Source: Allocoleopsis franciscana PCC 7113 (GTDB lineage Bacteria; Cyanobacteriota; Cyanobacteriia; Cyanobacteriales; Coleofasciculaceae). From it: a stretch of 64,000 bases of DNA. The translations under genes and the position numbers were made by a program. The notes beneath the pieces are model-generated. The model saw only the letters and a list, made by a program, of their open reading frames with translations. It searched no databases and was not told the origin of the DNA. This document shows positions 3,865 to 63,969 of the stretch, one piece after another (position 1 is the stretch's first letter; each line of letters opens with the position of its first letter). The stretch is taken from assembly GCF_000317515.1 (NCBI RefSeq), contig NC_019738.1, positions 1,745,623 through 1,809,622 of the forward strand. Reading direction: 5' to 3'.

Positions 3865-4569
3865 CTAAAATCTAACATGAGTTGAATAGGCGGCAAACTG
3901 CTCAATCCAGGCTGTTCGTACACGACCGGCCTGATTCGCTTGCCAGATTTTACCACTGGTCACATCCAAACACGTTAACCAGCCCTTGCTGTAAACTCTC
4001 GTATCAATACAAATCGCGTGCCCCCGATTGACCGGCAAGCCACTTTTTTGACTCGTATGCCCACAAACCATGGTTTTGCCGGAAATGTGTGGGACTGGAT
4101 TGCCAAATTTCTCCCAGAACAACATGCTTGCGGACTGCTTTGCTAGCGGTATATCGGGATGGACGTTGGCATGGACAAAAAAGTGAGTATCGGTTTCGTA
4201 CCAGTCTACACAGACATTTTCTATAAAGTGCCAGTGGCGAGCGGGGATATCCTTAAGCTTAGCCACTTGGTTCGATTTCGAGTAAGATGTGAGCGTCTCT
4301 TTGCCACCCCGACAGCGCCATAGGGATTCCTCCCTACGACTGAAACGTGCCGCCAGCATCATCAGTTCATGATTGCCTCGTAACGCAACAAGCTGTCCTT
4401 TCTGGTGTAGTTTGATTAACCGATTCAGGATGCCTTTCGAGTTTGGCCCTCGGTCTACATAATCGCCAAGGGTGATGATAGTATCGGTTGGCTGTAGCTT
4501 AACCCTAGAGAGCAGGGTATCAAATGCTGTTGAGCATCCGTGAATATCGCCGATGGCAAGAATACGCAT
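3865..4569 (-). CDS. Metallophosphoesterase, PPP-family Ser/Thr phosphatase or ApaH-like diadenosine tetraphosphatase
   Basis: N-terminal MRILAIGDIHGC...LGDYVDRGP...RGNHE motifs (GDxHG, GDxxDRG, GNHE) are diagnostic of calcineurin-like phosphoesterases. Confidence 0.8.
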   Translation of the reverse strand: MRILAIGDIHGCSTAFDTLLSRVKLQPTDTIITLGDYVDRGPNSKGILNRLIKLHQKGQLVALRGNHELMMLAARFSRREESLWRCRGGKETLTSYSKSNQVAKLKDIPARHWHFIENVCVDWYETDTHFFVHANVHPDIPLAKQSASMLFWEKFGNPVPHISGKTMVCGHTSQKSGLPVNRGHAICIDTRVYSKGWLTCLDVTSGKIWQANQAGRVRTAWIEQFAAYSTHVRF

Positions 4570-4654: not shown

Positions 4655-6178
4655 TTAGGCTTCTGACGAGATCAGCGATTCCATCGCTTTTTGCAGGTCT
4701 TCAGTGAGATCCGCCACCGCTTGTCGAGCACCCTGACGACTCGCCTGATACATAGGATAGCGTTCTGAAACCGATAGAGGCTGCCCAATGGTCATCTGTA
4801 CCCGTTGTCGGCCTAAGCGAGGGCGCTGAAAAGGGCTATGACCCTTAATGCGAGTGACCATATCCCATAATAGTAAGGTCGTCTCAGCAAATCGCTCTAC
4901 GGTAGGCTTTTCAATCACGTAGTAGCCAGTAACAGCCACAAACGTTTCCACTAAACGCATGTGCCACATCCGCAAGTTGGCTTCCTCCGCAATGCGATCG
5001 GCTAATCCTCTCTCCAAAGGAGAAATGGCTTTAACATTCTTCAACTCTTCTCGATAGATATAATTCCAGCCTGCTTGCTCTAACCGACGACAGCGATCAA
5101 TTAAACTCCCCTTCGCAGACAAGTCAAAATACTCTTCGGCTACCTGTAGCGCCACGTTGAGTAAGGCTTGGAGGCGAACGGCTAACCCTTCATTGAGGTG
5201 GGTTGCTGACTCTGGGGAGGGAGGAGTGGTATCCCCTGTCACCGTTGGCAAGGTTTGATGATAGAAGCGAGTGTAAAACTCTTCCATGAACGACAATAAG
5301 CGATCGCTCAAACGATAAAGCCTGCAATAAAGCCAGTTTTGAGCTTTCGGGGTTAGGGTTTGAGTGGCAGGGGTTAACTCTAAGCTTCCCTCCTCAACGG
5401 GTAAACCACTCGCCGCTTCTAATTCGCTTAACAGCTTTTCTATGGCTTTCCAGGGCGCTTCAACGTAACGATACTGAATTCCGATGGGTAAAATGCACAC
5501 CTCTTGGGTTCGATCTGCTTTGTGTACATCTTCAGCACACCAAAATCCAAATTGTGCAATCCCCGGTTCTAGGGGACTGATAATCTCATTATGTCCATTC
5601 GTCGCTCCTTCAGGGGAAGCCAACATCGGAAACTGACCATTGGCAAATAAGTGACGAATCGAGCGTAACCCCATCCAATCGGCCTTACCCCGCTGGATCG
5701 GAGTGCCACCCAATCGAGAATAGAGCCAAGCCATTTGTGAACCCGCCCACAGAGGAATGCCCCGATCATAAATAAAATGGCTATGAATGGGGGACTGTAA
5801 CGATATCCCCTGTTGTTTGGCAACCTGGGGTACCAACCGCCACAGCAAGTGAGCCAGACAAAGGGGGTCATCAACACTGGGATGCCGAAACGCCATTAAG
5901 AAACGAATTTTACCCTCCTGAAACTGACGATATAAATCGACCAAAACCTCGACGTTGTCTGCTTCAATTTGGCTAATCGCTGTGTGCCGACGCCTCCACA
6001 TCGGCAGCACTTGTTGGGCGACTCTTAGCACTAAGGGATTAAAATTCGGTGGGATAAATTCTAGAGGGGGCTGAGCCTGAATCATCAAATCTGGCAAGGG
6101 GGTTGTCTCCTGAGTGGCGATCAAATTGGGCAGCAGCACTCGTGTGACGCCGATGCTCCTAACATCACTACTGCACAT
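4655..6178 (-). CDS. Phospholipid/glycerol acyltransferase family protein (PlsC-like HX4D acyltransferase with long C-terminal extension)
   Basis: FRHPSVDDP matches the HX4D catalytic motif, and ASPEGATNGH resembles the FPEGTR block of lysophospholipid acyltransferases. The product is larger than canonical PlsC, so exact substrate is unknown. Confidence 0.55.
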   Translation of the reverse strand: MCSSDVRSIGVTRVLLPNLIATQETTPLPDLMIQAQPPLEFIPPNFNPLVLRVAQQVLPMWRRRHTAISQIEADNVEVLVDLYRQFQEGKIRFLMAFRHPSVDDPLCLAHLLWRLVPQVAKQQGISLQSPIHSHFIYDRGIPLWAGSQMAWLYSRLGGTPIQRGKADWMGLRSIRHLFANGQFPMLASPEGATNGHNEIISPLEPGIAQFGFWCAEDVHKADRTQEVCILPIGIQYRYVEAPWKAIEKLLSELEAASGLPVEEGSLELTPATQTLTPKAQNWLYCRLYRLSDRLLSFMEEFYTRFYHQTLPTVTGDTTPPSPESATHLNEGLAVRLQALLNVALQVAEEYFDLSAKGSLIDRCRRLEQAGWNYIYREELKNVKAISPLERGLADRIAEEANLRMWHMRLVETFVAVTGYYVIEKPTVERFAETTLLLWDMVTRIKGHSPFQRPRLGRQRVQMTIGQPLSVSERYPMYQASRQGARQAVADLTEDLQKAMESLISSEA

Positions 6179-25113: not shown

Positions 25114-26163
25114 TCAAATCACACTCACCACTGCCGCAGATTCAGACACTTTCATCAAAGCTTCGCGCACCACCTCAGAACCTGCGCCAAGAATACACGA
25201 ATTTTCCGTTAAATGACGCTTCCAAGCTCTACTTCCCGGTTGTCCTGAAAACAATTGCAGCATGTGTCGGGTAATTTTATTCAGCTTCAGTCCCTTTGCT
25301 ACCCACAAATCAATATAGGAACACATCACTTCAGCGACTTCATGACGAGTTAAAGGTGTACCTTCCTCACCGTAAATCTCAGAATCAGCCGTTGCAAACA
25401 AGTAAGGATTGTCGTAAGCCGCACGTCCAATCATCACCGCATCCACAAGTTTTAGCTGTTCTTTCACCTGTTGTAAATTAGTGAATCCCCCGTTAATTTC
25501 AACGAATAAATGAGGAAATTCTTGCTTGAGACGATGCACATCACCATAACGCAAAGGGGGAATATCCCGATTTTCCTTGGGGCTTAAACCCTGAAGCCAA
25601 GCCTTGCGGGCGTGCACAGTAAAACGCTGACAGCCTGCATCCGAGACAATACGGACAAAGTTAACCATATCCTCATAGCGATCGCACTCATCAATCCCAA
25701 TGCGATGCTTGACCGTAACAGGGATATTCACCGCCTCAATCATCGCTTCTACAGCCTTTGCTACCCGTTCCGGTTGCGCCATCAGGCAAGCCCCAAAGTT
25801 GCCATTTTGTACGCGATCGCTTGGACAACCGACATTGAGGTTAATCTCGTCGTAGCCCATATTCTCGGCAATTCGCGCACATTCCGCTAATTCTTCAGAG
25901 TTATCGCCCCCGACTTGAAGCGCTAGGGGTTTTTCTTCCGGGGAGAAACCGAGTAGATGTTCTTTGTCGCCATGTAGAATTGCCGCACTGGTGACCATCT
26001 CGGTATAGAGTAGGGTGCGCTGGGTGATTTGCCGCATGAAATAGCGAAAGTGGCGATCGGTGCGATCCATCATCGGCGCAACACTTAAGGGGTTACCGTC
26101 TAGGGTAAGTGTGTATTCAGTGCTAACCGGATTGGTAAAAATGGCTGTGTCGAGATGGGACAT
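25114..26163 (-). CDS. dusA: tRNA-dihydrouridine synthase A
   Basis: LSVAPMMDRTDRHFRYFMRQIT...NLNVGCPS...KHRIGID are DusA signatures (TIM-barrel flavoenzyme). Confidence 0.9.
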   Translation of the reverse strand: MSHLDTAIFTNPVSTEYTLTLDGNPLSVAPMMDRTDRHFRYFMRQITQRTLLYTEMVTSAAILHGDKEHLLGFSPEEKPLALQVGGDNSEELAECARIAENMGYDEINLNVGCPSDRVQNGNFGACLMAQPERVAKAVEAMIEAVNIPVTVKHRIGIDECDRYEDMVNFVRIVSDAGCQRFTVHARKAWLQGLSPKENRDIPPLRYGDVHRLKQEFPHLFVEINGGFTNLQQVKEQLKLVDAVMIGRAAYDNPYLFATADSEIYGEEGTPLTRHEVAEVMCSYIDLWVAKGLKLNKITRHMLQLFSGQPGSRAWKRHLTENSCILGAGSEVVREALMKVSESAAVVSVI

Positions 26164-26325
26164 TGGATTGTAGATTATGGATTTTGGATGGTTTCCGCTA
26201 TCCAGGGCTTATTGAAGTGATCGTAGCTCTGCCAGCACCTACAGTGGCATATACCACAGGATAAGGGCACGACATGTCGTGCCCCTACAAACTACTCGTT
26301 ATCTTTGTGATTGCAATAGCGCTCT

Positions 26326-27663: not shown

Positions 27664-27980
27664 ACTAGAGATTGGAAGGGATTAGGGACAGTGCCAAGCA
27701 ATTTTAACCCTAGGGCGTATTTTCCACTCCTTCGTGCCCCCAGTCCTCCTAATTAAAGTTTCGGTTAAGAAGTGGGAAAAAGTCGGTCAAAGTCCCCTTT
27801 TTAAGGCAGAGTTAGGAGAATCTCAATCGGATAGAGGAGTTAAGAAAACACAGAGTAGCGAGTTGGCACTCCAGGGAGCATCACGGCTCAAGTTACTGCA
27901 AATTTTTTGCATATCCTCTGTTCTCTCAAGAGATATAGAAATAGAGGCTTGAAAACGTCATCCATTAAGCCCTGAAGAAT

Positions 27981-30275
27981 ATGGTAATGTCTGACGATAA
28001 GACGCCAAGCGTCTACGAACCACTGACTTCCAGAATTGACAAAGTAAAAGTCTATGCAGCAGGTGCAACGGTTACTCGTGTCGCTGACTTACAGCTAGAC
28101 GCAGGCGAAATCCCAGAACAGGTTGAAATGGCGGGATTACCGCTAGCACTGGATGATAGCAGCGTTCGGGTGCGTGTGGAATCTGCATTGGGCGCGAGTA
28201 CGGCAATTGCCACTGATGTTCGGATTGGTTTAGCGGTTCCCCCACGCCAAGCCGTACAAAATTCACCAACCGATGAGGAGGTGCGGGAAGCGAAGGCTGA
28301 GGTACAACAGCTTGAGGATGCGATCGCTTTAATTGAAAATGAAATCGCCATCCTCTATCAACTAGATGTACCAGAACGCCCCGATGGGGAAGAAGGGAAA
28401 GCTCCCCCGCCTTCGCCTCTGACGGCTAGACTCGCCTTGACGAACTTTAAGGATGAACAAGTTCGTGCCCGCATCACAGAAAAGCGCGAAACGACGGAAA
28501 AGTTACGCCAAGCGCAAGAACATCTCGACGACTTACTGCAAAAACAGGCTCGTGCTTCTAATGCTAAAGAGGTTCGCCCCCATGAGCTTCGCAAGACAGT
28601 CGTTGTTCGGTTAAGTAACGAGGGTGAACCCAGTACCCTTGCAGGGCAAAGGTTAGTTGTAGAGTATTTTGTCCCAGGCGCACGTTGGACACCGACTTAT
28701 ATTTGCCGTTTGGATAGTACGGGAAATCAGGCAACAGTAGCAGTACGAGCCTTAATTTGTCAGCGCACGGGTGAAGATTGGTCGGGAGTCAGCTTGGAAC
28801 TTTCGACGGCTGAACCCCTGTCATGGTGTGAGTTGCCCGAATTGCCCTCTCTACGGCTTGGACGCGCTCAACCCAGGTTAAAAACATCGGGCTGGCGTCT
28901 TCCTCCGGTTGGTGCTGAGATTTTGTTTGAGGATTTTGATCGGCAGAAACAGGTAGCGATTTCTGCTGTATCTGTGCACTCCGTCCTCACGGATATCCCT
29001 TCCCCAAGCGTGCCACCGTTACCCAATTTGGCTGTAGAAGTTCTGAAACATCAGGGAATTGACGCCACACAAGTCCCAAAAAAAATGAGTCAGTCACCCT
29101 TGGACACACAAGAAATCTTTGAGAGAAGTCAGGAACTCCGCAAAGCTTCCTTTTCCCAGCAGAGGAGACGGCAGCGAGTCGAGTTAACAACCGATGAACC
29201 TTCTGCACCACGGGATGAATTTGATATCACCTTGATGTCTCCAGGCATGATCGACGCAGGCGAGTATAGCGGATACGCTGAAAGTATGCCTGCGGCAGCT
29301 CCGGCTGTATTTCGATCCCCTTCTAGACCCAAGACAGCCGCATTCCACGAGTCTCGACAAGCACAAGTGAGGGAAGAGGAAGACGCTTTAACCAATCTCC
29401 TCGCCTATAGCTTAATGCGGATGGGAGCCGCCGATGAACCAACCCAACGCGGTAAGTTGTCGATTGAGCAACGGCAAGAAGTCTATTTAGAAATCCTCAA
29501 ACGCCGGAACGTCGTTGTTAGTTTCAATGTACTCACAATAGTGCAACAGGCTGCAATTGATGCACGCAATTGCATTTATATCAATCTACCTCCCGGTGGA
29601 ATTAATGTGCGACAGGTTGCAGGTTCCTTTGACTATGCCTACAGCGCTGATGGACGTATCGATGTCCCTTCCGATGGTGAATTTCATTCTGTCGCTCTAA
29701 CGAGTAACTCGACAGATGTGGATTTGCGCTATGTGGTGGTACCCCGCGAGGATACCAATGTCTTCCGCATTGCTCAACTCAAGAACCCCTTACAAGCTCC
29801 CCTACTAGCTGGCCCTGCGGATGTGTATGTGGATGGCGAGTATATCTTATCGACTAAGATTACTACAGTGCCACCCAAGGGACAAATGGAGTTAGGTCTA
29901 GGGGTTGAGCAAGCCATCAAAGTAGCCCGGAACACGAGTTATCAGGAAGTTCGTTCCGGTGAAACCCTTGTTGCTTTTAACGAACTGCGCCACAACATTC
30001 AAATTGATATTGCCAACCGTTTACCCAGAGACGCGGCAATTGAGGTACGGGAACGAATTCCCATCCCTGACGCAGATGCCAAGGTTGATGTGCAAATTGA
30101 TCGCGCCTCACCGGAGTGGGAGAAATATGAACAACAAGAACGCGGCATACCGATTCGCGGAGGTTACCGTTGGCGAGTACAAGTGCCAGGGGGAGAGCAA
30201 ACAAAGCTATCAGTACAGTACACAATTAAAACGTTTGTGGATAGTGAGCTAATCGGGGGAAATCGACGGGAATAA
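27981..30275 (+). CDS. DUF4140/DUF4139 (TIGR02231, MuiA-like) family protein carrying a long disordered Pro/Ser/Arg-rich central insertion
   Basis: N-terminal domain (VYAAGATVTRVADLQLDAG...VRV), the conserved central block EYFVPGARWTPTYICRL...CQRTGEDWSGVSLELSTAEP and the C-terminal DUF4139-type beta-rich domain. It is a paralogue of the 31010-32596 product. Confidence 0.6.
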   Translation: MVMSDDKTPSVYEPLTSRIDKVKVYAAGATVTRVADLQLDAGEIPEQVEMAGLPLALDDSSVRVRVESALGASTAIATDVRIGLAVPPRQAVQNSPTDEEVREAKAEVQQLEDAIALIENEIAILYQLDVPERPDGEEGKAPPPSPLTARLALTNFKDEQVRARITEKRETTEKLRQAQEHLDDLLQKQARASNAKEVRPHELRKTVVVRLSNEGEPSTLAGQRLVVEYFVPGARWTPTYICRLDSTGNQATVAVRALICQRTGEDWSGVSLELSTAEPLSWCELPELPSLRLGRAQPRLKTSGWRLPPVGAEILFEDFDRQKQVAISAVSVHSVLTDIPSPSVPPLPNLAVEVLKHQGIDATQVPKKMSQSPLDTQEIFERSQELRKASFSQQRRRQRVELTTDEPSAPRDEFDITLMSPGMIDAGEYSGYAESMPAAAPAVFRSPSRPKTAAFHESRQAQVREEEDALTNLLAYSLMRMGAADEPTQRGKLSIEQRQEVYLEILKRRNVVVSFNVLTIVQQAAIDARNCIYINLPPGGINVRQVAGSFDYAYSADGRIDVPSDGEFHSVALTSNSTDVDLRYVVVPREDTNVFRIAQLKNPLQAPLLAGPADVYVDGEYILSTKITTVPPKGQMELGLGVEQAIKVARNTSYQEVRSGETLVAFNELRHNIQIDIANRLPRDAAIEVRERIPIPDADAKVDVQIDRASPEWEKYEQQERGIPIRGGYRWRVQVPGGEQTKLSVQYTIKTFVDSELIGGNRRE

Positions 30276-30345: not shown

Positions 30346-30990
30346 ATGCAGTCGGAACACCTACAACAAATCATGGATTATTACATTGAGGATGCTCAAA
30401 ACCATCTTGCTATCATTGAGCAGCATTTGTTGAAGTTGCAAAGTACGATTGAAGACCCAGAAATTGTGAGTGAGTTATTCCGCGCTGCACGTTGCGGAAT
30501 TGTTGGCGGAGCTAACTTGCTACCCATCAGTAGCTTTTATATCAACAGCATTCATAAAACGGGCTTTTGCTTAGTCGATTGTTTAAAAGTCATTCAGCAA
30601 CAGGGTTCGATCAAGATTGACCAAAAGCTAAAAGACCTATTAATGCAGGTATTTTACCGCCTCAAATCATTAATTGAACAATTGCGACAACCTTCTAACT
30701 TAAAGGATGATCAGGCTAAGCAAGTAATATCAGAAATTGAGCCAATTCGAGCAGCACTAATAGCACACCTTCATGGATTAAGCCATCAATCAGGAGGTAT
30801 GAATCGGCAAGAAATCGCCCTAACGAAGTGCTGTAATGTTAGCGACATGACCTTACAAGAGTCAGCACATATCGCATCCGAATTGGACGATGACATTCCC
30901 TCCCTAGAAGAGTTGGAATCACTCTTTGATGAACTCTTCCTCGATAGTTCTTGCGCTAATGTAGCCCCCATCAGTCAGGACGAACTGTAA
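30346..30990 (+). CDS. Hypothetical all-helical protein with a degenerate HPt-like segment (ELFRAARCGIVGGANLL)
   Basis: 214 aa between the two DUF4139 paralogues with 19-bp spacing to the next gene. The segment resembles the HPt/CheA-P1 block LFRAAHTIKGSAGM, but the phospho-accepting His is replaced by Arg. Confidence 0.45.
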   Translation: MQSEHLQQIMDYYIEDAQNHLAIIEQHLLKLQSTIEDPEIVSELFRAARCGIVGGANLLPISSFYINSIHKTGFCLVDCLKVIQQQGSIKIDQKLKDLLMQVFYRLKSLIEQLRQPSNLKDDQAKQVISEIEPIRAALIAHLHGLSHQSGGMNRQEIALTKCCNVSDMTLQESAHIASELDDDIPSLEELESLFDELFLDSSCANVAPISQDEL

Positions 30991-31009
30991 TCCAGAGGAA
31001 ACAATATTA

Positions 31010-32596
31010 ATGATGCAAGCCATTGGGCAATCGCCAAACACCATTCAACAACTCACTCTCGATGCACCTGTAGCTACAGTCACGCTCCTAGAAGACCGTG
31101 CCTTAGTGCGGCGAGTGGGTCAAGTTAACCTAACACAAGGATTATGGCGAATTAAAGTCGAGAACGTTGCGCCCGTACTTTCTGATAAATCCCTACGTGC
31201 CGAGTTTACTGGAGACTATTCAGGGGCAAGAATAGACGATGTTCGCGTTCGCCGCCAGATGCGGGTGTTGGAAGAGGAACGATCCGAAGAAATTAAAGGC
31301 TTGCTGGCAGAATTGCGATCGCTGCAAAACACCTTCAACCATCTTACCGAAGACCGCCAACATCAAGAGTATTCCTTTGAGCAAGTCGGCACCATCTTGG
31401 CGCATAGTTTGCAGGAACTCCCCATCGATGCCGTTTGGGGACAACTCGACCCGAAATCCTGGCGCGACCAATTTCAAACCCTATTTAAGCAGTTGCGCGA
31501 ACTGCGTACCGAAATTTTAAACGGTTATCACAATCAGGAAAAGTTAAGGGAGCTCCTTAATGACTTAGGCACCCGAATCCGCGCCCTGTCCAGCCCTGAA
31601 CTACTCTACACTGCCCACATCGAAGCCGATTTAATGGTGAATCAAGCAGGAGAGTATGCCATTGCTTTCGACTACGTGGTTCCTAATGCCATGTGGCGAC
31701 CGTGGCACCAAGCCCGTTTGCTGTTAGAAGAAAAGCCCTCTCTCTCCTTTCGCGTCGATGGTTGTGTATGGCAACGCACTGGCGAAGATTGGAAGAATGT
31801 GGATTTAGTCTTTTCCACTGCCCGTGCTTCCCTGGGCACCGAACCCCCCTTACTTGCCGATGACCCGTTAAATGTGCGGGAAAAATCCAAACAAATCATC
31901 ATTGAAACCCGCGACCAAAAAATTCAAACCACTGGACTCGGTGCAGGTGCAACACCGGGTACTGTTGAGCTACCGGGTGTGGATGACGGCGGTGAAGTCC
32001 GCAACCTACGACCCGCCAGTAAAGCGACGATTCCCTCTGATGGTCGTCCCTACCGTGTTCCCATCTTCTCCTTCTCCTCAGAAGCGGAGGTGGAGTATGT
32101 TTTGATGCCAGAACTGTCTTGTCAGGTTGTCCTTAAAAGCGAGCAGACCAATACCGCCCAATTCCCCATTCTGGCAGGGCCAGTGGATTTAGTGCGCTCA
32201 TCCGAGTTTGTCGGCAAGACATCGGTCGGATTTATTGCACCCGGAGAGAAGTTTGCCTTGGGATGGGGGCCAGATGGGGCAATGCGTGTGCAACGCACTA
32301 CAACCCAGAAAAGAAAACAAGACCATCTCACCAAGTGGAATACCGTCACAACCACGATTGAGTTATTTATCTCGAATATTGGAGCAGAGTCAAGGACGAT
32401 TAAAACCACAGAACGCGTACCCGTTTCAGAGTTGGAACAGGTGAAGGTAGAAGTGATTGCCCAAAAAACGACAGACGGCGTCCAACCAGATGAGAATGGC
32501 TTCTGTACGTGGCATTTCACCCTAGAACCCTACTCTCAACTTCAGGTTACTTTAGTCTATAAAGTCTCAGCCGCACCAGAGGTTCAAGGCTTCTAA
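31010..32596 (+). CDS. DUF4140/DUF4139 (TIGR02231, MuiA-like) family protein, canonical length
   Basis: Shares the conserved block DYVVPNAMWRPWHQARL...WQRTGEDWKNVDLVFSTARA with the 27981-30275 product. Coiled-coil middle section. Confidence 0.65.
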   Translation: MMQAIGQSPNTIQQLTLDAPVATVTLLEDRALVRRVGQVNLTQGLWRIKVENVAPVLSDKSLRAEFTGDYSGARIDDVRVRRQMRVLEEERSEEIKGLLAELRSLQNTFNHLTEDRQHQEYSFEQVGTILAHSLQELPIDAVWGQLDPKSWRDQFQTLFKQLRELRTEILNGYHNQEKLRELLNDLGTRIRALSSPELLYTAHIEADLMVNQAGEYAIAFDYVVPNAMWRPWHQARLLLEEKPSLSFRVDGCVWQRTGEDWKNVDLVFSTARASLGTEPPLLADDPLNVREKSKQIIIETRDQKIQTTGLGAGATPGTVELPGVDDGGEVRNLRPASKATIPSDGRPYRVPIFSFSSEAEVEYVLMPELSCQVVLKSEQTNTAQFPILAGPVDLVRSSEFVGKTSVGFIAPGEKFALGWGPDGAMRVQRTTTQKRKQDHLTKWNTVTTTIELFISNIGAESRTIKTTERVPVSELEQVKVEVIAQKTTDGVQPDENGFCTWHFTLEPYSQLQVTLVYKVSAAPEVQGF

Positions 32597-33863: not shown

Positions 33864-36260
33864 CTACTTTGCCATCAATTCTGTCACTTGCTGTAATAAC
33901 TGTAAAGGTTCGACAGGTTTAAGCAAGTAATCATCAATAAAAGCACTAAGTTCGTCCTCTTGGTCTTCAGTAATGGTGGACGTGGTTAAAGCGAGAATTT
34001 TGATTTGTTGAGTAGAAGGGGAGTTACGTAGACAATGGGTGACCTCATAACCATCCATTCCCCGTAATTGCCAATCGACAATGACAACATTGGGTTGAAG
34101 CAATTCAATCTGCTGGAAGGCTGTGGAACCATCAATCAACCAAACCACATGATAACCAGCGGCGGTGAGAATTTCGCAGATCGATGTTGCACTTTCTTCC
34201 TGATCTTCCACTAAGACAATACTGCCTTGAACAATAAAATTGTTCTTTTGAAGAGCAGCTTCTCTCATAGAAGTAGAAGACGTTAAAGGTTGATTGGGCA
34301 ACCAAACCGTAAAAAAAGAACCCTGACCCACTACAGATTCAACTTCAATTCGGCCTCCATGGAGTTCTACCAATTGTTTCGTCAACGCTAAACCCAGACC
34401 GGTTCCTTCATAGTTACGTTGATATACCGTTTCTAACTGCTGAAACTTTTGAAACAGTAAGGGTATGTGTTCTTCTGCAATACCGATACCCGTGTCTTCA
34501 ACTTGAAAGACAACCCAATTCTGCTCTCGCCAGATTCGTAGAATCACCTTACCCCCTGAGGGAGTAAATTTGATGGCATTGCCTAAGAGATTAAACAGAA
34601 TTTGCTTAACCCGGCGTTGATCGGCACAAAAGCGATCTTCCTGCCGCCGTGTGCCGTTCATACTTTGTGATTTAACTTGCAAATCCATTTCCAACTTGAG
34701 TTGGCGAAGGTCTGCTTTTTCCTGAAAAGTTCTGATTGTTTGGTGAGCCAAGTTATTTAGAGAAAACTCGCTAATGTTCAAAATAGCTTTCCCTGCCTCA
34801 ACTTGAGACAAATCCAAAATATCGTTAATTAGCTCTAATAAATGTTCCCCACTCTCTTGAATCGTTTTCAAATAGCGTCGCTGTTTGTGCAGAGGAACTT
34901 GTTGTGTACCTTCTTGACCAAAAGACCAGCGTAACAGCGTCGCCGACATTCCAATCACACAGGTCAAAGGCGTCCGTAATTCATGACTCATTGTAGCCAG
35001 AAATTCACTCTTAGCTCGATCAGCCGCTTGAGCCGCTTGTAAGATATCACGAAGTTCTTGTGTGCGCTCGATCACCCGTTGTTCAAGGGTCGTTTTTTGC
35101 TGCTGTAACTGAGCATACAACTGGGCTTGGTGAATGGCGACAGCCAGATGTTCTGCAATCTGTTTGAGAAATATTTTTTCATTTTCCAGCCAATGGCGCG
35201 GCTGAAAACACTGGTTGGCAATGAGTAAACCCCATAACTTTTCCTGAACGATAATGGGTGTAACCAACTTAGCGCGAACCTGATAACGTCGCATCAGCTC
35301 TAAGATGCAAGAAGAATCTGGGTAAGCGGCTTCGACATCATCAATACTTAAAGTTAGCCCTTGGCGATATTTTGTTCTGCAATTCGGTACCTGAAGTAAA
35401 CAATCTTCCTTTTCCACCAAATTCAGGACGGAAGAAATTGCATCGGAAGCTTTAGCTTCGTAGGTAACACGACCCCAGTAAACGGTAGAGTTAAGGATCG
35501 ACCCTTGAGAGGTAAGACGTAAATTTAATGATTCTGTCTTGTCTTGTGTTGAGGGAATGTTATCTGGGTAGATGGCAGAGACACAATTGAATTCATCAAA
35601 TTGATAGATTAACAGTCGATCAACCTGAAGAAAATTTCGCAATTGCTCAACGGCTGTTTCCAGAATGACCGGTAACTCTAGGCTTTGGCGAATTTGGGTG
35701 GTAACCTGATTCAGGAGTCGTTCCTGCTCAATCTGTTGGCATAGTGCCTCGTCAACCAAGGGCTGACAAACGGCTACAGGGCAATGGGCCGAGTCACTCA
35801 TTTCGCCAGAAGCCAAGATTTCCAGCAATGAGAGTGTAAATTCAGTCTGAAGGGTTGGATCATTGGTTCGCAGACGAGTCTGGGATTGATGTAGCGTATC
35901 CAAGGCAATAGGAGGATGGCTAGCATGACGACTCAGTTGGGTGAGGAAGGAGGCGATCGCCTTCGGCTCGAAGGTCAACCCAACCTGATACAATCTCGAC
36001 TGACCGTCATATCCAGCCACCGAGTCTGGCTCTTGTGGTTCCCCGACTAGCAGTACACTGAATCGTAATGACAGCAGAACAGCAAACCGCTGAGTCTCAA
36101 ATTCTGGAGGCGTTGCACTCTTAGATAGACTCTTCTCGTCGGTCAGGAGTAAAGCTTCCTCACCGAGTCTAGACTTCATCTGCTTTAATAGGTCTTGCAG
36201 CCGCTCAAACATAGCCAATGGCAACGTTCGGCTGAATCTTGGATCACCCAGTATAGGCAT
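33864..36260 (-). CDS. Hybrid sensor histidine kinase (N-terminal sensory region, GAF, HisKA, HATPase_c and C-terminal receiver)
   Basis: H-box SHELRTPLTCVIGMS, N/G boxes (LLGNAIKFTP, DTGIGI, GTGLGLALTKQLVELHGGRIEVES) and a C-terminal REC (IVLVEDQEE...VIVDWQLRGMDGYEV). Confidence 0.9.
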   Translation of the reverse strand: MPILGDPRFSRTLPLAMFERLQDLLKQMKSRLGEEALLLTDEKSLSKSATPPEFETQRFAVLLSLRFSVLLVGEPQEPDSVAGYDGQSRLYQVGLTFEPKAIASFLTQLSRHASHPPIALDTLHQSQTRLRTNDPTLQTEFTLSLLEILASGEMSDSAHCPVAVCQPLVDEALCQQIEQERLLNQVTTQIRQSLELPVILETAVEQLRNFLQVDRLLIYQFDEFNCVSAIYPDNIPSTQDKTESLNLRLTSQGSILNSTVYWGRVTYEAKASDAISSVLNLVEKEDCLLQVPNCRTKYRQGLTLSIDDVEAAYPDSSCILELMRRYQVRAKLVTPIIVQEKLWGLLIANQCFQPRHWLENEKIFLKQIAEHLAVAIHQAQLYAQLQQQKTTLEQRVIERTQELRDILQAAQAADRAKSEFLATMSHELRTPLTCVIGMSATLLRWSFGQEGTQQVPLHKQRRYLKTIQESGEHLLELINDILDLSQVEAGKAILNISEFSLNNLAHQTIRTFQEKADLRQLKLEMDLQVKSQSMNGTRRQEDRFCADQRRVKQILFNLLGNAIKFTPSGGKVILRIWREQNWVVFQVEDTGIGIAEEHIPLLFQKFQQLETVYQRNYEGTGLGLALTKQLVELHGGRIEVESVVGQGSFFTVWLPNQPLTSSTSMREAALQKNNFIVQGSIVLVEDQEESATSICEILTAAGYHVVWLIDGSTAFQQIELLQPNVVIVDWQLRGMDGYEVTHCLRNSPSTQQIKILALTTSTITEDQEDELSAFIDDYLLKPVEPLQLLQQVTELMAK

Positions 36261-36425
36261 TGCTTTCGTCTATGTGTGACGCTTCTCTCCTTCGTTGATG
36301 CTATTCGAGACTCGGTGACCCACTTGTAATATATTCTTCAATCTTTATCATTAGCTTCTACCCGCAGACTAAAACAAGAGATAACACATTGCACTTGTCA
36401 TTCGACGAAGCCAGAGGACTACACC

Positions 36426-39400
36426 ATGCACCGTATCGCCGCAACGCCAGGAGGGTGGAACCCTCAAGCCGAAGGCGTCATTTTCATTGAACAGTCAGCA
36501 GCACCCATCGTTTTCCTTACAGCAGCGGACACAGATATTCAGACTCTGGCAGCATCAACATCTCAATTGCCAGTGGGTTTCCCTGGGCTACGGGTAGTCA
36601 ATCTGTTGCAGTTGCAGCAGCAACTCACAATTGATACCTATGCAGAAAATGTCTTATCGTCTGCTCAGATCATTATTTTACGGGTCTTGGGCGGACGTGC
36701 CTACTGGTCTTATGGATTAGAAGTGGTGCTAGACACGGTGCAGCAAACGAGTGCTGCCTTGATTGTGTTGCCTGGAGATGACCGCCCCGACCCCGATCTC
36801 ATGAGTCACTCTACAGTATCACTGACCGTGGTGAATCAGGTCTGGCGCTATCTCACGGAAGGGGGCGTTGAGAATTTTGTAAACGCCCTTAAATTTGTGG
36901 CGGATGTCTGTCTGGAGCAAACTTATCATCCACCCGCGCCAAAACCTGTGCCTCGTGTTGGGCTTTATTCCTGGGGAATTGGGAAGGGGGACAAGGGGGA
37001 CAAGGGGGACAAGGGTGATAATTCTCTCTCTCGCCTTCCTCATCCAAAATCCAAAATCCAAAATCTAAAATCCAAAGTTGGGATTCTGTTCTACCGTGCT
37101 CATTACTTGGCGGGAAACTTATCACCTATTGATGCACTTTGTCAAGCTTTAGCTAAACGACAGTTGGAACCTGTACCTATATTTGTCTCTTCGTTACGTG
37201 ACTCAGATGTGCAAGCAGAATTGTTGACGTATTTTCAGCCCAAAGAGGGTTTTGGAATTGACCTGTTACTGAATACAACTAGTTTTTCTCTAGCGAAATT
37301 GAACGCGGAAACCCCTCAGTTGGAGTTGTGGAAGCGTCTGGATGTGCCCGTGTTGCAGGTTATCTTCAGTAGCGGCACGGTGGAACAGTGGGATTCGCAG
37401 TTTCAGGGACTTACAGCCCGTGATACGGCGATGAATGTAGCACTGCCAGAGGTGGATGGGCGTATCATCAGCCGTGCGGTTTCGTTTAAGTCGGTGCAAT
37501 CCTGGAACCCTGATTTGGAAACCGATGTGGTAGTTTATGAGCCGGTGCCTTGTCGGATTAATTTTGTCGCTGATTTAGCCGCGAGTTGGGTACAATTACG
37601 GCAAACCCCACCCCCTGAACGACGCATTGCTCTGATTTTGGCTAATTATCCGAATCGTGATGGACGCCTTGCTAATGGTGTGGGATTGGATACGCCGGCT
37701 AGCTGTGTGGAGATTCTGAAGGGGTTGCAGCAGGCAGGTTATCGGGTTGAGGATATTCCGGAAACGGGGGATGAGTTGATTGGACGGCTGACGGCTGGGG
37801 TGACGAATGATCCGGAAGGGCGGGATTTTCGCTTGGTGCGGCAGGAGTTGTCTTGGGAAGAGTATGGGGAGTATTTTGAGGGGTTGCCTGCGGAGGTTCA
37901 CAAAGGAATAGGCGATCGCTGGGGAAATCTTGAGCAGAGGACTGAAAATCCTCGTGTCCCATTCCCTATTTCAGGAATTCAGTTGGGGAATGTGTTTGTT
38001 GGGATTCAGCCGTCGCGTGGGTATGATGTTGACCCTAGTTTGAATTATCATGCGCCGGATTTGGAGCCGACTCATGCTTATCTGGCGTTTTATTATTGGC
38101 TGCGGCAGCATTTTGGAATGCAGGCGGTGGTGCATGTGGGGAAGCATGGAAATCTAGAGTGGTTGCCGGGTAAAAGTGTGGCGCTGTCGGGTAAGTGTTA
38201 TCCAGAGGTGGCGTTGGGGGCAATGCCTCATTTATATCCGTTTATTGTGAATGATCCGGGTGAGGGGTCTCAGGCAAAGCGTCGTTCGCAAGCGGTGATT
38301 ATTGACCACTTGACACCGCCGATGACTCGTGCACAGTTGTATGGCCCGTTGCAAAAGTTAGAAGGATTGATGGATGAGTATTATGAGGCGCAAAGTTTAG
38401 ATCCGAAGCGATTGGGTGTGATTAGCGATCGCATTACTCAACTGATCATCCAAGAAAATCTCCACCAAGATTTAGGAATCGAAACGGACGAAATCCAAAA
38501 CCCAGATTCTAATATTCAAAATCGGATTGATGGCTACCTTTGTGAGTTAAAGGAAGCCCAAATTCGAGATGGTCTTCATATTTTTGGACATTGTCCCGAT
38601 GGGCGTCAATTGCGAGATTTAATTGTAGCGATTGCCCGTCATCCAAGTCATGATCGTATCGGTTTAACTCGTGCTTTAGCTGAGGATTTGGGATGGGATT
38701 TCGACCCACTTACGGCTGATTTGTCAGGAGTAGGGGATAATAATTACCGCACGATTGGGGACATGGTTGAAGCACTTGAACAACAAGCGGCTGAATTGGT
38801 AGAACAACTGATCCAAAATCAGATCCCCCCCTTACTAAGGGGGGATAGCGTAGGCAGGGGGTTAGGAGAGGCAAGCAAACGAGAATTAGAATGGATATGC
38901 GATCGCCTCTTGCCTTCTCTGCAACAAACTAACCAAGAAATTACCCAGTTATTACGAGGATTGGATGGGCGATATATCGAAAGTGGGCCATCTGGTGCAC
39001 CAACACGAGGACGCCCAGAAGTCTTACCCACAGGACGCAACTTTTATTCCGTTGATATTCGTGCGATTCCCACAGAAACAGCTTGGGCGGTGGGACGAAA
39101 GGCGGCTGAAGTATTAATTGAACGCTATACCCAAGAAAATGGTGAATATCCCAAAACATTAGGACTCTCAGTTTGGGGAACCTCAACCATGCGTACTGGC
39201 GGTGATGATTTAGCGGAGGCATTAGCTTTATTGGGGGTTCAACCCATTTGGGATTATCCTTCGCGTCGAGTGGTGGATTTTGAAATCTTGCCTGTGTCAG
39301 TTTTGGGGCGTCCTCGTGTGGATGTAACGTTGCGAATTTCTGGCTTTTTCCGCGATGCTTTTCCGAACTTAATTAGTTTATTTGACCAAGCGGTTGCAGC

Positions 39401-40409
39401 CGTTGCCGCTTTGGCTGAACCGCCGGAGGATAATCCTTTAGCTGCCCAAGTTCAGCAAGAAGCCGAGATGTGGCTATCCCAAGGGTTGAGTCAGGAAGAG
39501 GCAAATGTGCGATCGCGCTATCGGATCTTTGGTTCTAAACCCGGTGCTTATGGGGCTGGATTACAAGGTTTAATTGAATCTCAAAATTGGACAGATGAGC
39601 AAGATATCGCCCGCGCTTATATTAATTGGAGTAGTTACGCCTACACGAGTAGCCCCCCTAGGGCGTGTTTTCAAACTTCCCCGCAAAATTCAGATCCCCC
39701 CCTGCCCTCCTTAACAAGGGGGGAGAATTCAATCAAAGTCCCCCTTAAAAAGGGGGATTTAGGGGGATCTCCGGGTTTGAAAGCAGACTCCAACCCTCTG
39801 GGTGGACTAGGGGGGGTAGCCGCACCTGAAGCCTTTAATCAACGTTTGAAACAGATGCAAGTTGTACTGCACAACCAGGATAACCGGGAACACGATTTGC
39901 TAGATTCTGATGATTATTACCAATTCCAAGGGGGTTTAACGGCGGCGGTGCGGGCTTTAACGGGCAAGAATCCCACCATCTATTTTGGCGATCATTCCAT
40001 TCCTGAAAACCCGAAAGTTCGGCAACTCCGAGAAGAAATTGCACGAGTCTATCGTTCTCGTGTTGTCAATCCGAAGTGGATTGAAGGGGTAATGCGGCAC
40101 GGTTACAAAGGTGCGTTTGAAATGTCAGCTACCGTTGATTACTTATTCGCATACGATGCCACGACTACTTGTGTAGAAGACTATATGTATCAAGGTGTAG
40201 CCGAGGCATATTTATTCGACTCAAAGGTACAGGAATTTATCCAACAAAAGAATCCTTGGGTTTTGCGAGATATGGCTGAACGATTGCTGGAAGCCAATCA
40301 ACGAGGGTTATGGAAAGAAGTGAAGGGGGAAGTTTTGGAAGAATTAAGAGCGATCGCGTTGCAAGCGGAGGCGGTGATTGAAGGGACTCATGATCAATCT
40401 TTGAGGTAA
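36426..40409 (+). CDS. cobN: Cobaltochelatase subunit CobN (CobN/Mg-chelatase H family), carrying several in-frame repeat insertions
   Basis: 1327 aa with family-typical N-terminus (IFIEQSAAPIVFLTAADTDIQTLA), central GLDTP...ANYPNRDGRLANGVGLDTPAS and C-terminal blocks. Extra low-complexity segments (GDKGDKGDKGD, HPKSKIQNLKSK, IPPLLRGDSVGRGLG, and about 55 aa at 39650-39830) coincide with repeat DNA. Confidence 0.9.
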   Translation: MHRIAATPGGWNPQAEGVIFIEQSAAPIVFLTAADTDIQTLAASTSQLPVGFPGLRVVNLLQLQQQLTIDTYAENVLSSAQIIILRVLGGRAYWSYGLEVVLDTVQQTSAALIVLPGDDRPDPDLMSHSTVSLTVVNQVWRYLTEGGVENFVNALKFVADVCLEQTYHPPAPKPVPRVGLYSWGIGKGDKGDKGDKGDNSLSRLPHPKSKIQNLKSKVGILFYRAHYLAGNLSPIDALCQALAKRQLEPVPIFVSSLRDSDVQAELLTYFQPKEGFGIDLLLNTTSFSLAKLNAETPQLELWKRLDVPVLQVIFSSGTVEQWDSQFQGLTARDTAMNVALPEVDGRIISRAVSFKSVQSWNPDLETDVVVYEPVPCRINFVADLAASWVQLRQTPPPERRIALILANYPNRDGRLANGVGLDTPASCVEILKGLQQAGYRVEDIPETGDELIGRLTAGVTNDPEGRDFRLVRQELSWEEYGEYFEGLPAEVHKGIGDRWGNLEQRTENPRVPFPISGIQLGNVFVGIQPSRGYDVDPSLNYHAPDLEPTHAYLAFYYWLRQHFGMQAVVHVGKHGNLEWLPGKSVALSGKCYPEVALGAMPHLYPFIVNDPGEGSQAKRRSQAVIIDHLTPPMTRAQLYGPLQKLEGLMDEYYEAQSLDPKRLGVISDRITQLIIQENLHQDLGIETDEIQNPDSNIQNRIDGYLCELKEAQIRDGLHIFGHCPDGRQLRDLIVAIARHPSHDRIGLTRALAEDLGWDFDPLTADLSGVGDNNYRTIGDMVEALEQQAAELVEQLIQNQIPPLLRGDSVGRGLGEASKRELEWICDRLLPSLQQTNQEITQLLRGLDGRYIESGPSGAPTRGRPEVLPTGRNFYSVDIRAIPTETAWAVGRKAAEVLIERYTQENGEYPKTLGLSVWGTSTMRTGGDDLAEALALLGVQPIWDYPSRRVVDFEILPVSVLGRPRVDVTLRISGFFRDAFPNLISLFDQAVAAVAALAEPPEDNPLAAQVQQEAEMWLSQGLSQEEANVRSRYRIFGSKPGAYGAGLQGLIESQNWTDEQDIARAYINWSSYAYTSSPPRACFQTSPQNSDPPLPSLTRGENSIKVPLKKGDLGGSPGLKADSNPLGGLGGVAAPEAFNQRLKQMQVVLHNQDNREHDLLDSDDYYQFQGGLTAAVRALTGKNPTIYFGDHSIPENPKVRQLREEIARVYRSRVVNPKWIEGVMRHGYKGAFEMSATVDYLFAYDATTTCVEDYMYQGVAEAYLFDSKVQEFIQQKNPWVLRDMAERLLEANQRGLWKEVKGEVLEELRAIALQAEAVIEGTHDQSLR
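36981..37080 (+). repeat. Intragenic short tandem repeats in cobN: 9-bp (ggggacaag)x3 followed by a heptanucleotide STRR-like array (ccaaaat x4-5)
   Basis: Directly visible: aagggggacaagggggacaagggggacaagg then tccaaaatccaaaatccaaaatctaaaatccaaag. The reading frame is retained. Confidence 0.9.
38821..38870 (+). repeat. G/C-rich palindromic mini-repeat (agatcccccccttactaaggggggatagcgtaggcagggggttagg) inserted in frame in cobN
   Basis: Hairpin C7-TT-act-AA-G6 followed by aGGGGGtta. Same family as 39691-39817 and 56107-56166. Confidence 0.8.
39691..39817 (+). repeat. Composite of two or three G/C-rich palindromic mini-repeats inserted in frame in cobN
   Basis: cagatcccccccctgccctccttaacaagggggg..., then cccccttaaaaaggggg, then atttagggggatctccggg, then ctagggggggtagc. 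Each is a short hairpin with C5-7 and G5-7 arms. Confidence 0.8.
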
Positions 40410-41668: not shown

Positions 41669-42538
41669 ATGACAAATCAAAAGCATATTGAATTACTTGC
41701 TCAAGGAGTAAATGTATGGAATGCTTGGATGGAAAAAAATCACCATTTAATACCTAATCTCCGAGAAGCCAACCTGAGGGAAGCTCACCTCCGATATGTC
41801 AATTTGTGTACAGCGGATTTATCCGAAGCAGATTTGTTTAATGCTAAGCTCAGCGGTGCCGACCTGACGGGAGCGAACCTCACTAGAGCGAACCTCTTTT
41901 TAGTCGATTTCTCAACAGCCGACCTCACGAGAGTTGATCTCACTGGAGCGAACCTCACTAGAGCGAACCTGTTTTTCACCAATCTCACGGGAGCTAATTT
42001 GACGGGAGCTAATTTGACGGGAGCTAACCTCAAAGAAGCCAATTTTAGCAATGCCGGCCTCTGTCGTGCTGACCTTAGTGGTGCTAATCTCAATAGAGCT
42101 GACCTCAGTAAAGCCGACCTAAGAAATATCAACCTGAGTGGTGCTGACCTGAGTGGTGCTAACCTTGGTAAAGCCAACCTGAGTGGTGCTAACCTCTGCG
42201 CGGCTAACCTCAGTGGTGCCAACCTCTGCGCGGCTAACCTGAGTGGTACTAACCTCTGCGCTGCTAACTTCAAAAGAGCTAACCTTAGTGGTGCCAGTTT
42301 GAGCAATACTCATGCGTTGGGTACGAACTTTGAACAGGCAAGACTCACGGGTGTTGAGCTAGAAGATTGGAGTATTAACTCTGACTCCAATTTTGATGGT
42401 GTGATTTGTGACTATGTTTATTTGAAGGCGCAGCATCAAGATCGTCTCCCTATGAGTAGAAAATTTGTCCCAGGAGAGTTCATCAGTTTATTTTCCCGAC
42501 AAATGAACTACCCGAATCTATATTCCAAAGGCGCATAA
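41669..42538 (+). CDS. Pentapeptide repeat protein
   Basis: About 35 consecutive A(D/N)L(S/T)GA-type pentapeptides. The minus-strand ORF 41785-42306 is its mirror-image artefact. Confidence 0.85.
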   Translation: MTNQKHIELLAQGVNVWNAWMEKNHHLIPNLREANLREAHLRYVNLCTADLSEADLFNAKLSGADLTGANLTRANLFLVDFSTADLTRVDLTGANLTRANLFFTNLTGANLTGANLTGANLKEANFSNAGLCRADLSGANLNRADLSKADLRNINLSGADLSGANLGKANLSGANLCAANLSGANLCAANLSGTNLCAANFKRANLSGASLSNTHALGTNFEQARLTGVELEDWSINSDSNFDGVICDYVYLKAQHQDRLPMSRKFVPGEFISLFSRQMNYPNLYSKGA

Positions 42539-56106: not shown

Positions 56107-56166
56107 AAGATCCCCCCAACCCTCAATAACATCATATTCCCCCCTTGATAAGGGGGGTTAGGGGGT
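56107..56166 (+). repeat. Third copy of the AGATCCCCCC-type palindromic mini-repeat (gatccccccaaccctc...ttccccccttgataaggggggttagggggtaa), immediately after the cupA stop
   Basis: Same hairpin-plus-AGGGGGTA architecture as the two cobN insertions. Confidence 0.8.
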
Positions 56167-63573: not shown

Positions 63574-63969
63574 TTAAAGGGTATCTGGGTCGATATTCAA
63601 CTCCCGTAGTTTCGCGGCTAATCGCTCAGCCCGTTGTGTTTCCTGTTCAGCCCGTTGTGTTTCCTGTTCAGCTCGTTGTGTTTCCTGTTCAGCTCGTTGT
63701 GTTGCCTGTTCAGCCCGTTGTATTTCTTGTTCGGCTACTTCTTCCGGTGTGGGAACTAGCTCACCTTCTGCGGTGAAAAAGCGTAATTGTCTTTGATGAA
63801 TTCCCAAATATAACTGTAGTTGTTGACTCCACAACAATCCTTGAGAATTAGGTTCTAGCGATTGGTATTCACCATCTAATAAATGGAATCCCTCAAATTC
63901 TAAGCTGTCCGGGTCAAACCAAAAGTAATCCGGTGTGCGAAATGTATCTTGATATATTTGCTTTTTCAA
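63574..63969 (-). CDS. C-terminal part of an Uma2-family-like protein with (QRAEQET)n repeats; probably 5'-partial because the N-terminus runs off the window
   Basis: RTPDYFWFDPDSLEFEGFHLLDGEYQSLEPN aligns with RIPYYGIYIVSHGTLEMYHLVNTSYERMTPN of the 56651-57478 product, and both end in L(G/N)IDxxxL. The stop codon lies inside the IS target duplication. Confidence 0.5.
   Translation of the reverse strand: MKKQIYQDTFRTPDYFWFDPDSLEFEGFHLLDGEYQSLEPNSQGLLWSQQLQLYLGIHQRQLRFFTAEGELVPTPEEVAEQEIQRAEQATQRAEQETQRAEQETQRAEQETQRAERLAAKLRELNIDPDTL

Follow-up and report, generated by a model that had tools for sequence, protein, structure and literature searches.

Does a tandem array of seven-nucleotide units inside a gene for cobalamin biosynthesis act as a switch, or is it simply carried along? 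The question is raised by a 64,000-nucleotide stretch of Allocoleopsis franciscana PCC 7113 (contig NC_019738.1, positions 1,745,623 to 1,809,622; hereafter the window, in whose coordinates positions are given), where two short arrays, one of nonamers and one of heptamers, lie within cobN, the gene for the cobaltochelatase subunit CobN. A sequence-only reading of the window had offered both answers, a contingency switch or a tolerated insertion. In this study, we find that the heptamer array is probably the latter: a repeat-built insertion in a permissive, predicted disordered loop of CobN, which is old, interrupted and static, and not a switch. The cobN repeats are a new example of a known feature, the in-frame, repeat-derived loop of low complexity, in which the seven-nucleotide units are the unusual detail. 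In our literature searches we met no account of this loop (residues 182–217), nor of heptamer arrays within cyanobacterial cobN genes.

Both arrays lie in the cobN frame, as had been proposed. The open reading frame (ORF) matches TIGR02257, the NCBIfam CobN equivalog, over its full length with 1657.7 bits (cut-off 822), the match being split solely at a second insertion (residues 1076–1130), and PF02514 spans residues 140–1300 with 1421.6 bits. The top sequence matches in the PDB are the CobN structures 9uk9 and 7c6o, and the nearest named homologues belong to Microcoleus FACHB-1, Allocoleopsis and Stenomitos, all of them non-heterocystous filamentous cyanobacteria. The features on which the argument turns are the following:

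36426 to 40409, plus strand: cobN coding sequence, cobaltochelatase subunit CobN, 1327 residues (intact ORF; Pfam and TIGR02257)
36951 to 36968, plus strand: 5′ anchor PRVGLY, residues 176–181, with a predicted beta-strand at 178–180 (alignment, AlphaFold2)
36969 to 37076, plus strand: hypervariable loop, residues 182–217 (SWGIGKGDKGDKGDKGDNSLSRLPHPKSKIQNLKSK), almost wholly made of short repeats (alignment, AlphaFold2)
36984 to 37015, plus strand: nonamer array, (GGGGACAAG)x3 plus partial units, encoding (K)GDKGDKGDKGD (Tandem Repeats Finder)
37016 to 37041, plus strand: spacer GDNSLSRLPH between the arrays (read from the sequence)
37042 to 37076, plus strand: heptamer array of five units, encoding PKSKIQNLKSK (Tandem Repeats Finder)
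37077 to 37103, plus strand: 3′ anchor VGILFYRAH, residues 218–226, with a predicted beta-strand at 216–223 (alignment, AlphaFold2)

Tandem Repeats Finder assigns the heptamer array a period of 7 and 5.0 copies with 92% matches, a head-to-tail tandem of seven-nucleotide units, and the nonamer array a period of 9 and 3.6 copies with 100% matches; from dinucleotide-preserving shuffles, 0.06 and 0.00 two-unit patterns of the respective kinds would be expected by chance in the window. The encoded peptide had been given correctly as ...GIGKGDKGDKGDKGDNSLSRLPHPKSKIQNLKSKVGILFYRAH, and it runs on to the 3′ strand as ...GIGKGDKGDKGDKGDNSLSRLPHPKSKIQNLKSK/VGILFYRAH. The gap between the arrays, earlier put at 25 nucleotides, is 26–30 nucleotides depending on how the units are phased. 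As for the four to five copies of CCAAAAT described there, five heptamer units are indeed present, but only three are perfect, the array reading CCAAAAT three times, then CTAAAAT and finally CCAAAGT in that phasing. At its longest, the perfect tract covers three units and three further nucleotides (37042–37065); unit 4 carries a C-to-T interruption, and the final unit includes the codon of the nearly invariant Lys217.

These units differ in what they can do to the frame. The nonamer array cannot shift it, since nine is a multiple of three. For the heptamers the frameshift logic of the sequence-only reading holds: in silico, a length change of one or two units, in either direction, leads to stops at residues 212–238, while three units leave the frame as it is, and the CTAAAAT interruption itself provides a TAA in one alternative frame. 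Two further possibilities were considered and set aside. Programmed ribosomal frameshifting finds no X XXY YYZ slippery heptamer in the cobN reading frame, and the gene requires no shift; a minus-strand ORF overlapping the arrays (36819–37061, 80 residues, TTG start) is considered a by-product of the stop-free repeat unit.

The place in which the arrays lie was examined in an alignment of the window CobN with 120 homologues, all cyanobacterial and 1129–1529 residues long (1247–1529 for the full-length ones). The PRVGLY anchor is kept in nearly all of them, with G179 and Y181 invariant, and on the 3′ side L221 to H226 are invariant and K217 is at least 90% conserved; the consensus of the loop between them is without any majority residue. 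From PRVGLY to KVGILFYRAH the loop measures 9–155 residues (median 35) in 124 cyanobacterial CobN proteins, its length and sequence differ in essentially every cyanobacterial CobN examined, and its length varies most among the six variable loops of at least ten residues in the window CobN. In an AlphaFold2 model of residues 1–460 (predicted template modelling score 0.73), whose best fold match is CobN from M. tuberculosis (7c6o), residues 186–212 have predicted local distance difference test values of 30–34, below 50, and no secondary structure, and they are flanked by confident strands at 178–180 and 216–223. The solved CobN 9uk9, which is not cyanobacterial, has a shorter equivalent segment by sequence alignment. 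As modelled, the loop is structurally permissive, a predicted disordered segment between conserved strands. The location of the array in the loop that varies most in length fits the second answer of the sequence-only reading, a tolerated insertion.

The comparison with orthologous cobN genes that had been proposed as a check counts against a switch at the window array. Four other lineages (L029, L001, L024 and L025–28) share the heptamer array at the same place, in the same frame and with the same CTAAAAT or TTAAAAT interruption, and they do so in independent assemblies (L001 from NCBI, L029 from JGI, L024 from ENA, L025–28 from four samples). In L029, a JGI contig, unit 2 reads CCAACAT, a K-to-N change; in L001, a metagenome-assembled genome of Allocoleopsis, units 2 and 4 read CGAAAAT and TTAAAAT, both synonymous. 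The array of L025–28 consists of three CCAAAAT and two CTAAAAT units followed by CGG (the loop of L025 also has CAACAGT and CAAAAGT units), and that of L024 reads CCAAAAT CCAAAAT CTAAAAT CCAAAAT, then CGG. L024 lacks one unit at the 5′ edge, which is the sole unit-number difference among the five lineages, the remaining array differences being point substitutions. A sixth lineage (L032/33, 69% amino acid identity) retains the two 3′ units, CAAAATCTAAAATCCAAAGT. At the protein level, KSKIQNLKSK is identical in the window and in P0004, P0006 and P0013, at 78–84% amino acid identity, and P0123 and P0013, which belong to one 90% cluster, differ in three loop residues with the array the same. The array is 86–97% identical in nucleotides between the window and the array-bearing lineages, as against 79–89% for the whole gene.

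Because the unit-4 interruption is common to all of them, the arrays are orthologous and older than the split of these 79–89% identical lineages. Repeat mutability climbs steeply with uninterrupted tract length (PMC3315296), and a conserved unit number combined with point substitutions is therefore the opposite of a hypermutable tract. An out-of-frame allele of the window-type array was not found among the protein and contig homologue matches examined, and a metagenome scan for CCTCATCCAAAAT N7-37 CCAAAGTTGGGATT, which spans arrays from two units shorter to two units longer, returned one contig, with the same gap.

The spacer between the arrays is conserved in L001 and L029 bar point changes, and its (TC)5 run (37023–37032), a further small slippage-prone tract of the loop, is shortened in both. 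The nonamer varies in frame, with one GDK in L029, three in the window (an 18-nucleotide difference) and three diverged GNQ units in L001; the nonamer array still grows and shrinks from lineage to lineage without shifting the frame. Its sense strand reads GGG AA GGGGG ACAA GGGGG ACAA GGGGG ACAA GGG (36984–37015), and by pattern these five G-tracts constitute a canonical G-quadruplex motif within a coding sequence, which is present in L001 and lost in L029.

Several observations weigh against reading the heptamer array as an old, neutral and static passenger. Unit number was compared between lineages that are 79–89% identical in nucleotides, with no isolates or reads of the same species among them, and protein-based searches are biased against frameshifted alleles. 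Further, the closest relatives overall (L030, L031 and P0130, the Microcoleus FACHB-1/ZQ-A2 group), which share 93–94% amino acid identity with the window CobN outside the loops, have a wholly different loop of 15 residues, QESEVRSQEQSTKAK in Microcoleus FACHB-1, built on CAGGAGT/CCGGAGT heptamers. Either this sub-lineage replaced its loop, or the window lineage gained its own by recombination; a different loop in the closest relatives therefore means that wholesale replacement is possible faster than the apparent age of the array, or that recombination has occurred. Nucleotide identity between the window and L031 dips to 0.90 just 3′ of the loop, compared with 0.93–0.98 elsewhere, which is suggestive of loop recombination but not decisive. 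Finally, the codons of the array are identical beyond what codons for the same amino acids show elsewhere in the gene (9 of 9 in L024, where 57% would be expected, and 10 of 11 in L025, where 62% would be), and such above-average synonymous conservation is not predicted by pure neutrality.

As to how the array arose, local slipped-strand duplication of a heptamer at the boundary of the loop would be the simplest origin. At this boundary the codons xCC-AAA-RTy, for (S/P)-K-(I/V), give CCAAAAT or CCAAAGT even in genomes that lack the array, and array-less loci (L006, L004, L011, L017 and L031) have CCAAAGTT or CCAAAATC as their boundary motif. Local seeding fits because the 3′-most unit coincides with the native codon context of the nearly invariant Lys217. 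On this account, the array would have grown by slipped-strand duplication from the native sequence where loop meets strand, and only products whose total length kept the frame would have passed selection. The interruption of unit 4 and the small number of perfect units may then have lowered the slippage rate until the array became fixed, with KSKIQNLKSK presumably a passenger in a flexible linker and without a catalytic role.

In other cyanobacteria, the same loop is filled again and again with short DNA repeats. We compared the loop DNA of about 30 loci; among the matches listed, relatives represented by genome contigs are at most 77% identical, and they are useful as a view of loop diversity. 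The fillings are heptamers translated as periods of seven residues, nonamers, and hairpin units with C5 and G5 arms. Heptamers include AGTCAGG, GGGAGCA, CCCCATG, CCCCAAT and CAAAAGT/CAACAGT, giving periods such as SGVRSQE and SPIPNPQ; the hairpin units are translated as PPLKRGE or PLKKGDLGG, and the loop of L012 holds a 24-mer in 11 copies. The nonamer GGGGACAAG, read as GDK in the window, is read in another frame as QGG in Nostoc (L017) and occurs in reverse orientation in Pelatocladus (L011). Since the same nonamer is read in other frames and orientations, the loop repeats are DNA-level units, translated incidentally, and not conserved peptides.

Outside this loop, the window has more hairpin units of this kind. 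A second large in-frame insertion of cobN (39654–39819, residues 1076–1131) has 56 residues, where the family median is 15, and consists of nested C5-7/G5-7 palindromes (GATCCCCCCC...GGGGGATC; CCCCCTTAAAAAGGGGGA) translated as ...PPLPSLTRGENSIKVPLKKGDLGGS...; it divides both the TIGR02257 and the PDB matches in two, and a homologous insertion is present in P0130 and P0007. One C5-N-G5 unit (38826–38844) lies in another variable loop of cobN, where it is read as PPLLRGD, and another (56139–56157) is intergenic and terminator-like, just past the stop of an ORF ending at 56102.

Heptamer arrays in this loop do change in at least one other lineage. Seven full-length CobN proteins from Trichocoleus/Funiculus sociatus (P0080, P0254, P0256–P0258, P0260 and P0261) are 96–98% identical outside gaps, and their loops differ mostly by whole periods of seven residues (21 nucleotides), with SPIPNPQ in about 2–5 copies and GLGTRDK in about 1–5. 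The loop of this group is an in-frame variable-number tandem repeat (VNTR) composed of heptamer triplets. A homologue search with the N-terminal 260 residues of the window CobN returned many fragments that stop in the loop at contig ends and several that cross the conserved strand in a shifted frame. Three metagenome contigs of the Trichocoleus/Funiculus group are out of frame across the array. In L036 (a 1670-nucleotide contig of GCA_034690445.1; about 1380–1480), (CCCCAAT)x14 directly adjoins the PKIG codons of cobN; the body of the gene is read in another frame than its N-terminal domain, and one unit more or two units fewer would bring the two together. L035 (ERZ27286124; about 4230–4300) belongs to a related population and shows an equal frame offset over an array that is shorter and degenerate, and the third contig is P0251. 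Because L035 and L036 end 45–110 nucleotides past the array, misassembly of the 98-nucleotide period-7 tract is a serious alternative. Whether real off alleles or misassemblies, these three are a lead and not a finding.

Most of the apparent frameshifts among the homologues have other explanations. In L034 (P0233) cobN lies in eight pieces and the neighbouring kinase gene is also split, which points to an error-rich assembly. In L037 (P0219) the shift lies in a C14 homopolymer and not in heptamers; this tract (about 5005–5018 of a 21-kb contig) encodes the conserved NPPPP just upstream of PRIG and separates ORFs of 219 and 1046 residues, and the gene is split either by an error of sequencing or by a frameshift in the homopolymer. 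P0094, whose 1129 residues start exactly at LFYRAH, begins 131 nucleotides from a contig end and is attributed to an assembly break, and the cluster fragments P0121, P0122, P0126 and P0128, whose termini lie far from the loop or which have local double frameshifts elsewhere, are uninformative.

A heptamer array encodes the same seven-residue periodic peptide in all three frames, so that only the exit frame changes, and such arrays would therefore be unusually cheap to carry in a gene. It is conceivable, if rather improbable, that the CobN loop is a clade-wide hot spot in which heptamer arrays are born, expand and decay, that long perfect arrays such as that of L036 might give reversible cobN-off subpopulations, and that the window array is a decayed, locked-on end state.

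How, then, do the alternatives for the window array itself compare? Were it a contingency locus, gain or loss of one or two heptamers would switch cobN off and on, and populations would mix B12 producers with non-producers. The truncation of CobN at residues 212–238 and the restoring effect of three units are what such a locus needs, heptamer arrays of the same loop do vary in copy number between near-identical strains of another lineage, and out-of-frame contigs exist there (L036, L035 and P0251). Those contigs, however, end shortly past the array or stem from error-rich assemblies and may be artefacts, and the window array offers three perfect units and an interruption in place of a long perfect tract. 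Its unit number and the position of its interruption are conserved in five lineages (bar L024) that have accumulated point substitutions, in place of copy-number polymorphism; off alleles are missing from the matches examined; and cobN encodes a housekeeping enzyme, outside the classes that are typically phase-variable. We consider a switch at this array very improbable. An artefact of sequencing or assembly in the window is less probable still, to the point of being negligible: assemblies often break in the loop and many N-terminal CobN fragments end there, but the array recurs in the independent NCBI, JGI, ENA and four-sample assemblies, and the ORF is intact across it.

The array could also be retained for a function, as a Lys-rich tether (for CobS/CobT docking or solubility) or as an mRNA or DNA element such as an inter-domain translational pause. 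The identity of KSKIQNLKSK in three homologues and the window, the excess codon identity in L024 and L025, and the adjoining nonamer array, whose five G-tracts are G-quadruplex-capable by sequence pattern (cf. PMC4692102), would suit such a role. The motif, however, is found in just 6 of 124 loops, the closest relatives do entirely without it and have an intact CobN, and L029 combines a K-to-N change within it with loss of the G-tract pattern. The synonymous signal amounts to about 11 codons, from non-independent lineages and with little synonymous choice. No Rfam match at E ≤ 1 was found in 36000–37400, the RNA fold of 36975–37085 was no better than that of shuffled sequence (z = −0.41), and a promoter and terminator scan gave nothing at the arrays; we regard retention for function as quite unlikely. 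Somewhat less so, yet still unlikely, is the insertion of dispersed repeat families, either of the short tandemly repeated repetitive (STRR) type or small mobile repeats, rather than local slippage. This would account for the degenerate CCAAAAT-type array just upstream of the dusA start codon (26164–26189, minus strand), for the finding that GGGGACAAG turns up again in distant genera, within CobN loops and outside them, with frame and orientation changed, and for the intergenic copy at 56139 of the C5/G5 hairpin units of cobN. Against it, the 3′-most heptamer is the native Lys217 codon context, CCAAAGTT or CCAAAATC even where the array is lacking, and the heptamer array has no flanking target-site duplications or terminal inverted repeats. 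Local slippage and dispersed insertion do not rule each other out, and the present state is the same under either.

The consensus units of the STRR families are CCCCAGT (STRR1), TTGGTCA (STRR2) and CAACAGT (STRR3). Compared by hand, CCAAAAT matches them at no more than four of seven positions in any rotation; the earlier label "STRR-like" therefore fits as far as type goes, since this is a cyanobacterial tandem heptamer, but does not fit the sequence. The likeness extends to a filamentous host and to the intergenic 5′ leader (26164–26189) in which the unit recurs in degenerate form, while the cobN array differs in being coding and translated, short and interrupted, and in a host that is apparently non-heterocystous. 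The degenerate copy, CCAAAAT CCATAAT CTACAAT CCAATG on the minus strand, runs into the ATG of a dusA-like dihydrouridine synthase gene (25114–26163, PF01207), a leader position that is usual for repeats of this sort, and together with one two-unit match at 5540 it makes up the CCAAAAT-type repeats elsewhere in the window. Four heptamer arrays of at least 3.5 copies occur in the window, of which that in cobN alone is genic and three are intergenic (26164, 32619 and 41049). Heptamers are an over-represented repeat class in such cyanobacterial genomes (PMC4692102; PMC4679880), and the STRR heptamers of Calothrix PCC 7601 are cited in PMC4692102 as three tandemly repetitive heptanucleotides. Heptamer direct repeats of the TAACTGA type sit upstream of start codons in Beggiatoaceae and cyanobacteria (PMC4679880), as does the second CCAAAAT-type array of the window directly upstream of the dusA ATG, but the unit sequence differs and the cobN array is gene-internal.

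Phase-variable contingency loci (PMC3315296) resemble the cobN array in that its unit is not a multiple of three, it lies in the N-terminal fifth of the coding sequence and a one-unit change truncates the protein; they differ from it in that the cobN tract is short and interrupted with a conserved copy number, and in that the gene is biosynthetic and does not encode a surface or restriction-modification protein. Closer are the in-frame VNTRs and low-complexity insertions that conserved proteins carry in surface loops, with which it shares a predicted disordered loop and length differences that are multiples of three nucleotides and track repeat units, although here the building block is seven nucleotides and the window array itself no longer varies. 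Because the building block is seven nucleotides, it is mainly triplets of units that are found in intact cobN genes. The nonamer array, for its part, recalls the G-rich GGGGA(C/T)T heptamers of Nostoc, which have G-quadruplex potential and are mostly non-coding (Rehm et al. 2015, PMC4692102). Both are cyanobacterial and GGGGACAAG gives at least four sense-strand G-tracts, but the unit is nine nucleotides long and lies in a coding sequence, its G-tracts are not conserved in L029, and it is known by its sequence pattern.

Some further features of the window were recorded. A hybrid kinase gene with GAF, HisKA and receiver domains (33864–36260) adjoins cobN divergently, an arrangement kept in L001, L025, L030 and L031, and two paralogous DUF4140/DUF4139 proteins (27969–30272 and 30965–32593) are encoded near each other, upstream of the two-component genes flanking cobN. 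Other repeats comprise a 27-nucleotide unit in 27.6 copies (1387–2100; 85% matches), encoding a Thr/Pro/Gly-rich nine-residue repeat in a very long ORF that is cut by the start of the window (1–3783, plus strand), and a 21-nucleotide unit in 5.1 copies (93% matches) near the window end (63626–63732). A pentapeptide-repeat protein (PF00805, eight stretches) is encoded at 41669–42535, which explains the 15-, 30-, 45- and 75-nucleotide periodicities that Tandem Repeats Finder reports at 41864–42294.

In conclusion, annotators should take the cobN repeats neither as a pseudogene signal nor as a switch. The loop is a practical nuisance, at which many assemblies break or shift frame. If the out-of-frame alleles of the other lineage are real, they would be a rare cyanobacterial example of a biosynthetic "public good" switched by repeats, and if the hot-spot reading with its cobN-off subpopulations holds, a vitamin that is costly and can be shared would be subject to phase variation in a free-living phototroph. 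For the family as a whole, one loop of a conserved 1300-residue enzyme collects the spreading short repeats of its host, even those whose units are not multiples of three, and selection passes mainly the combinations that preserve the frame.

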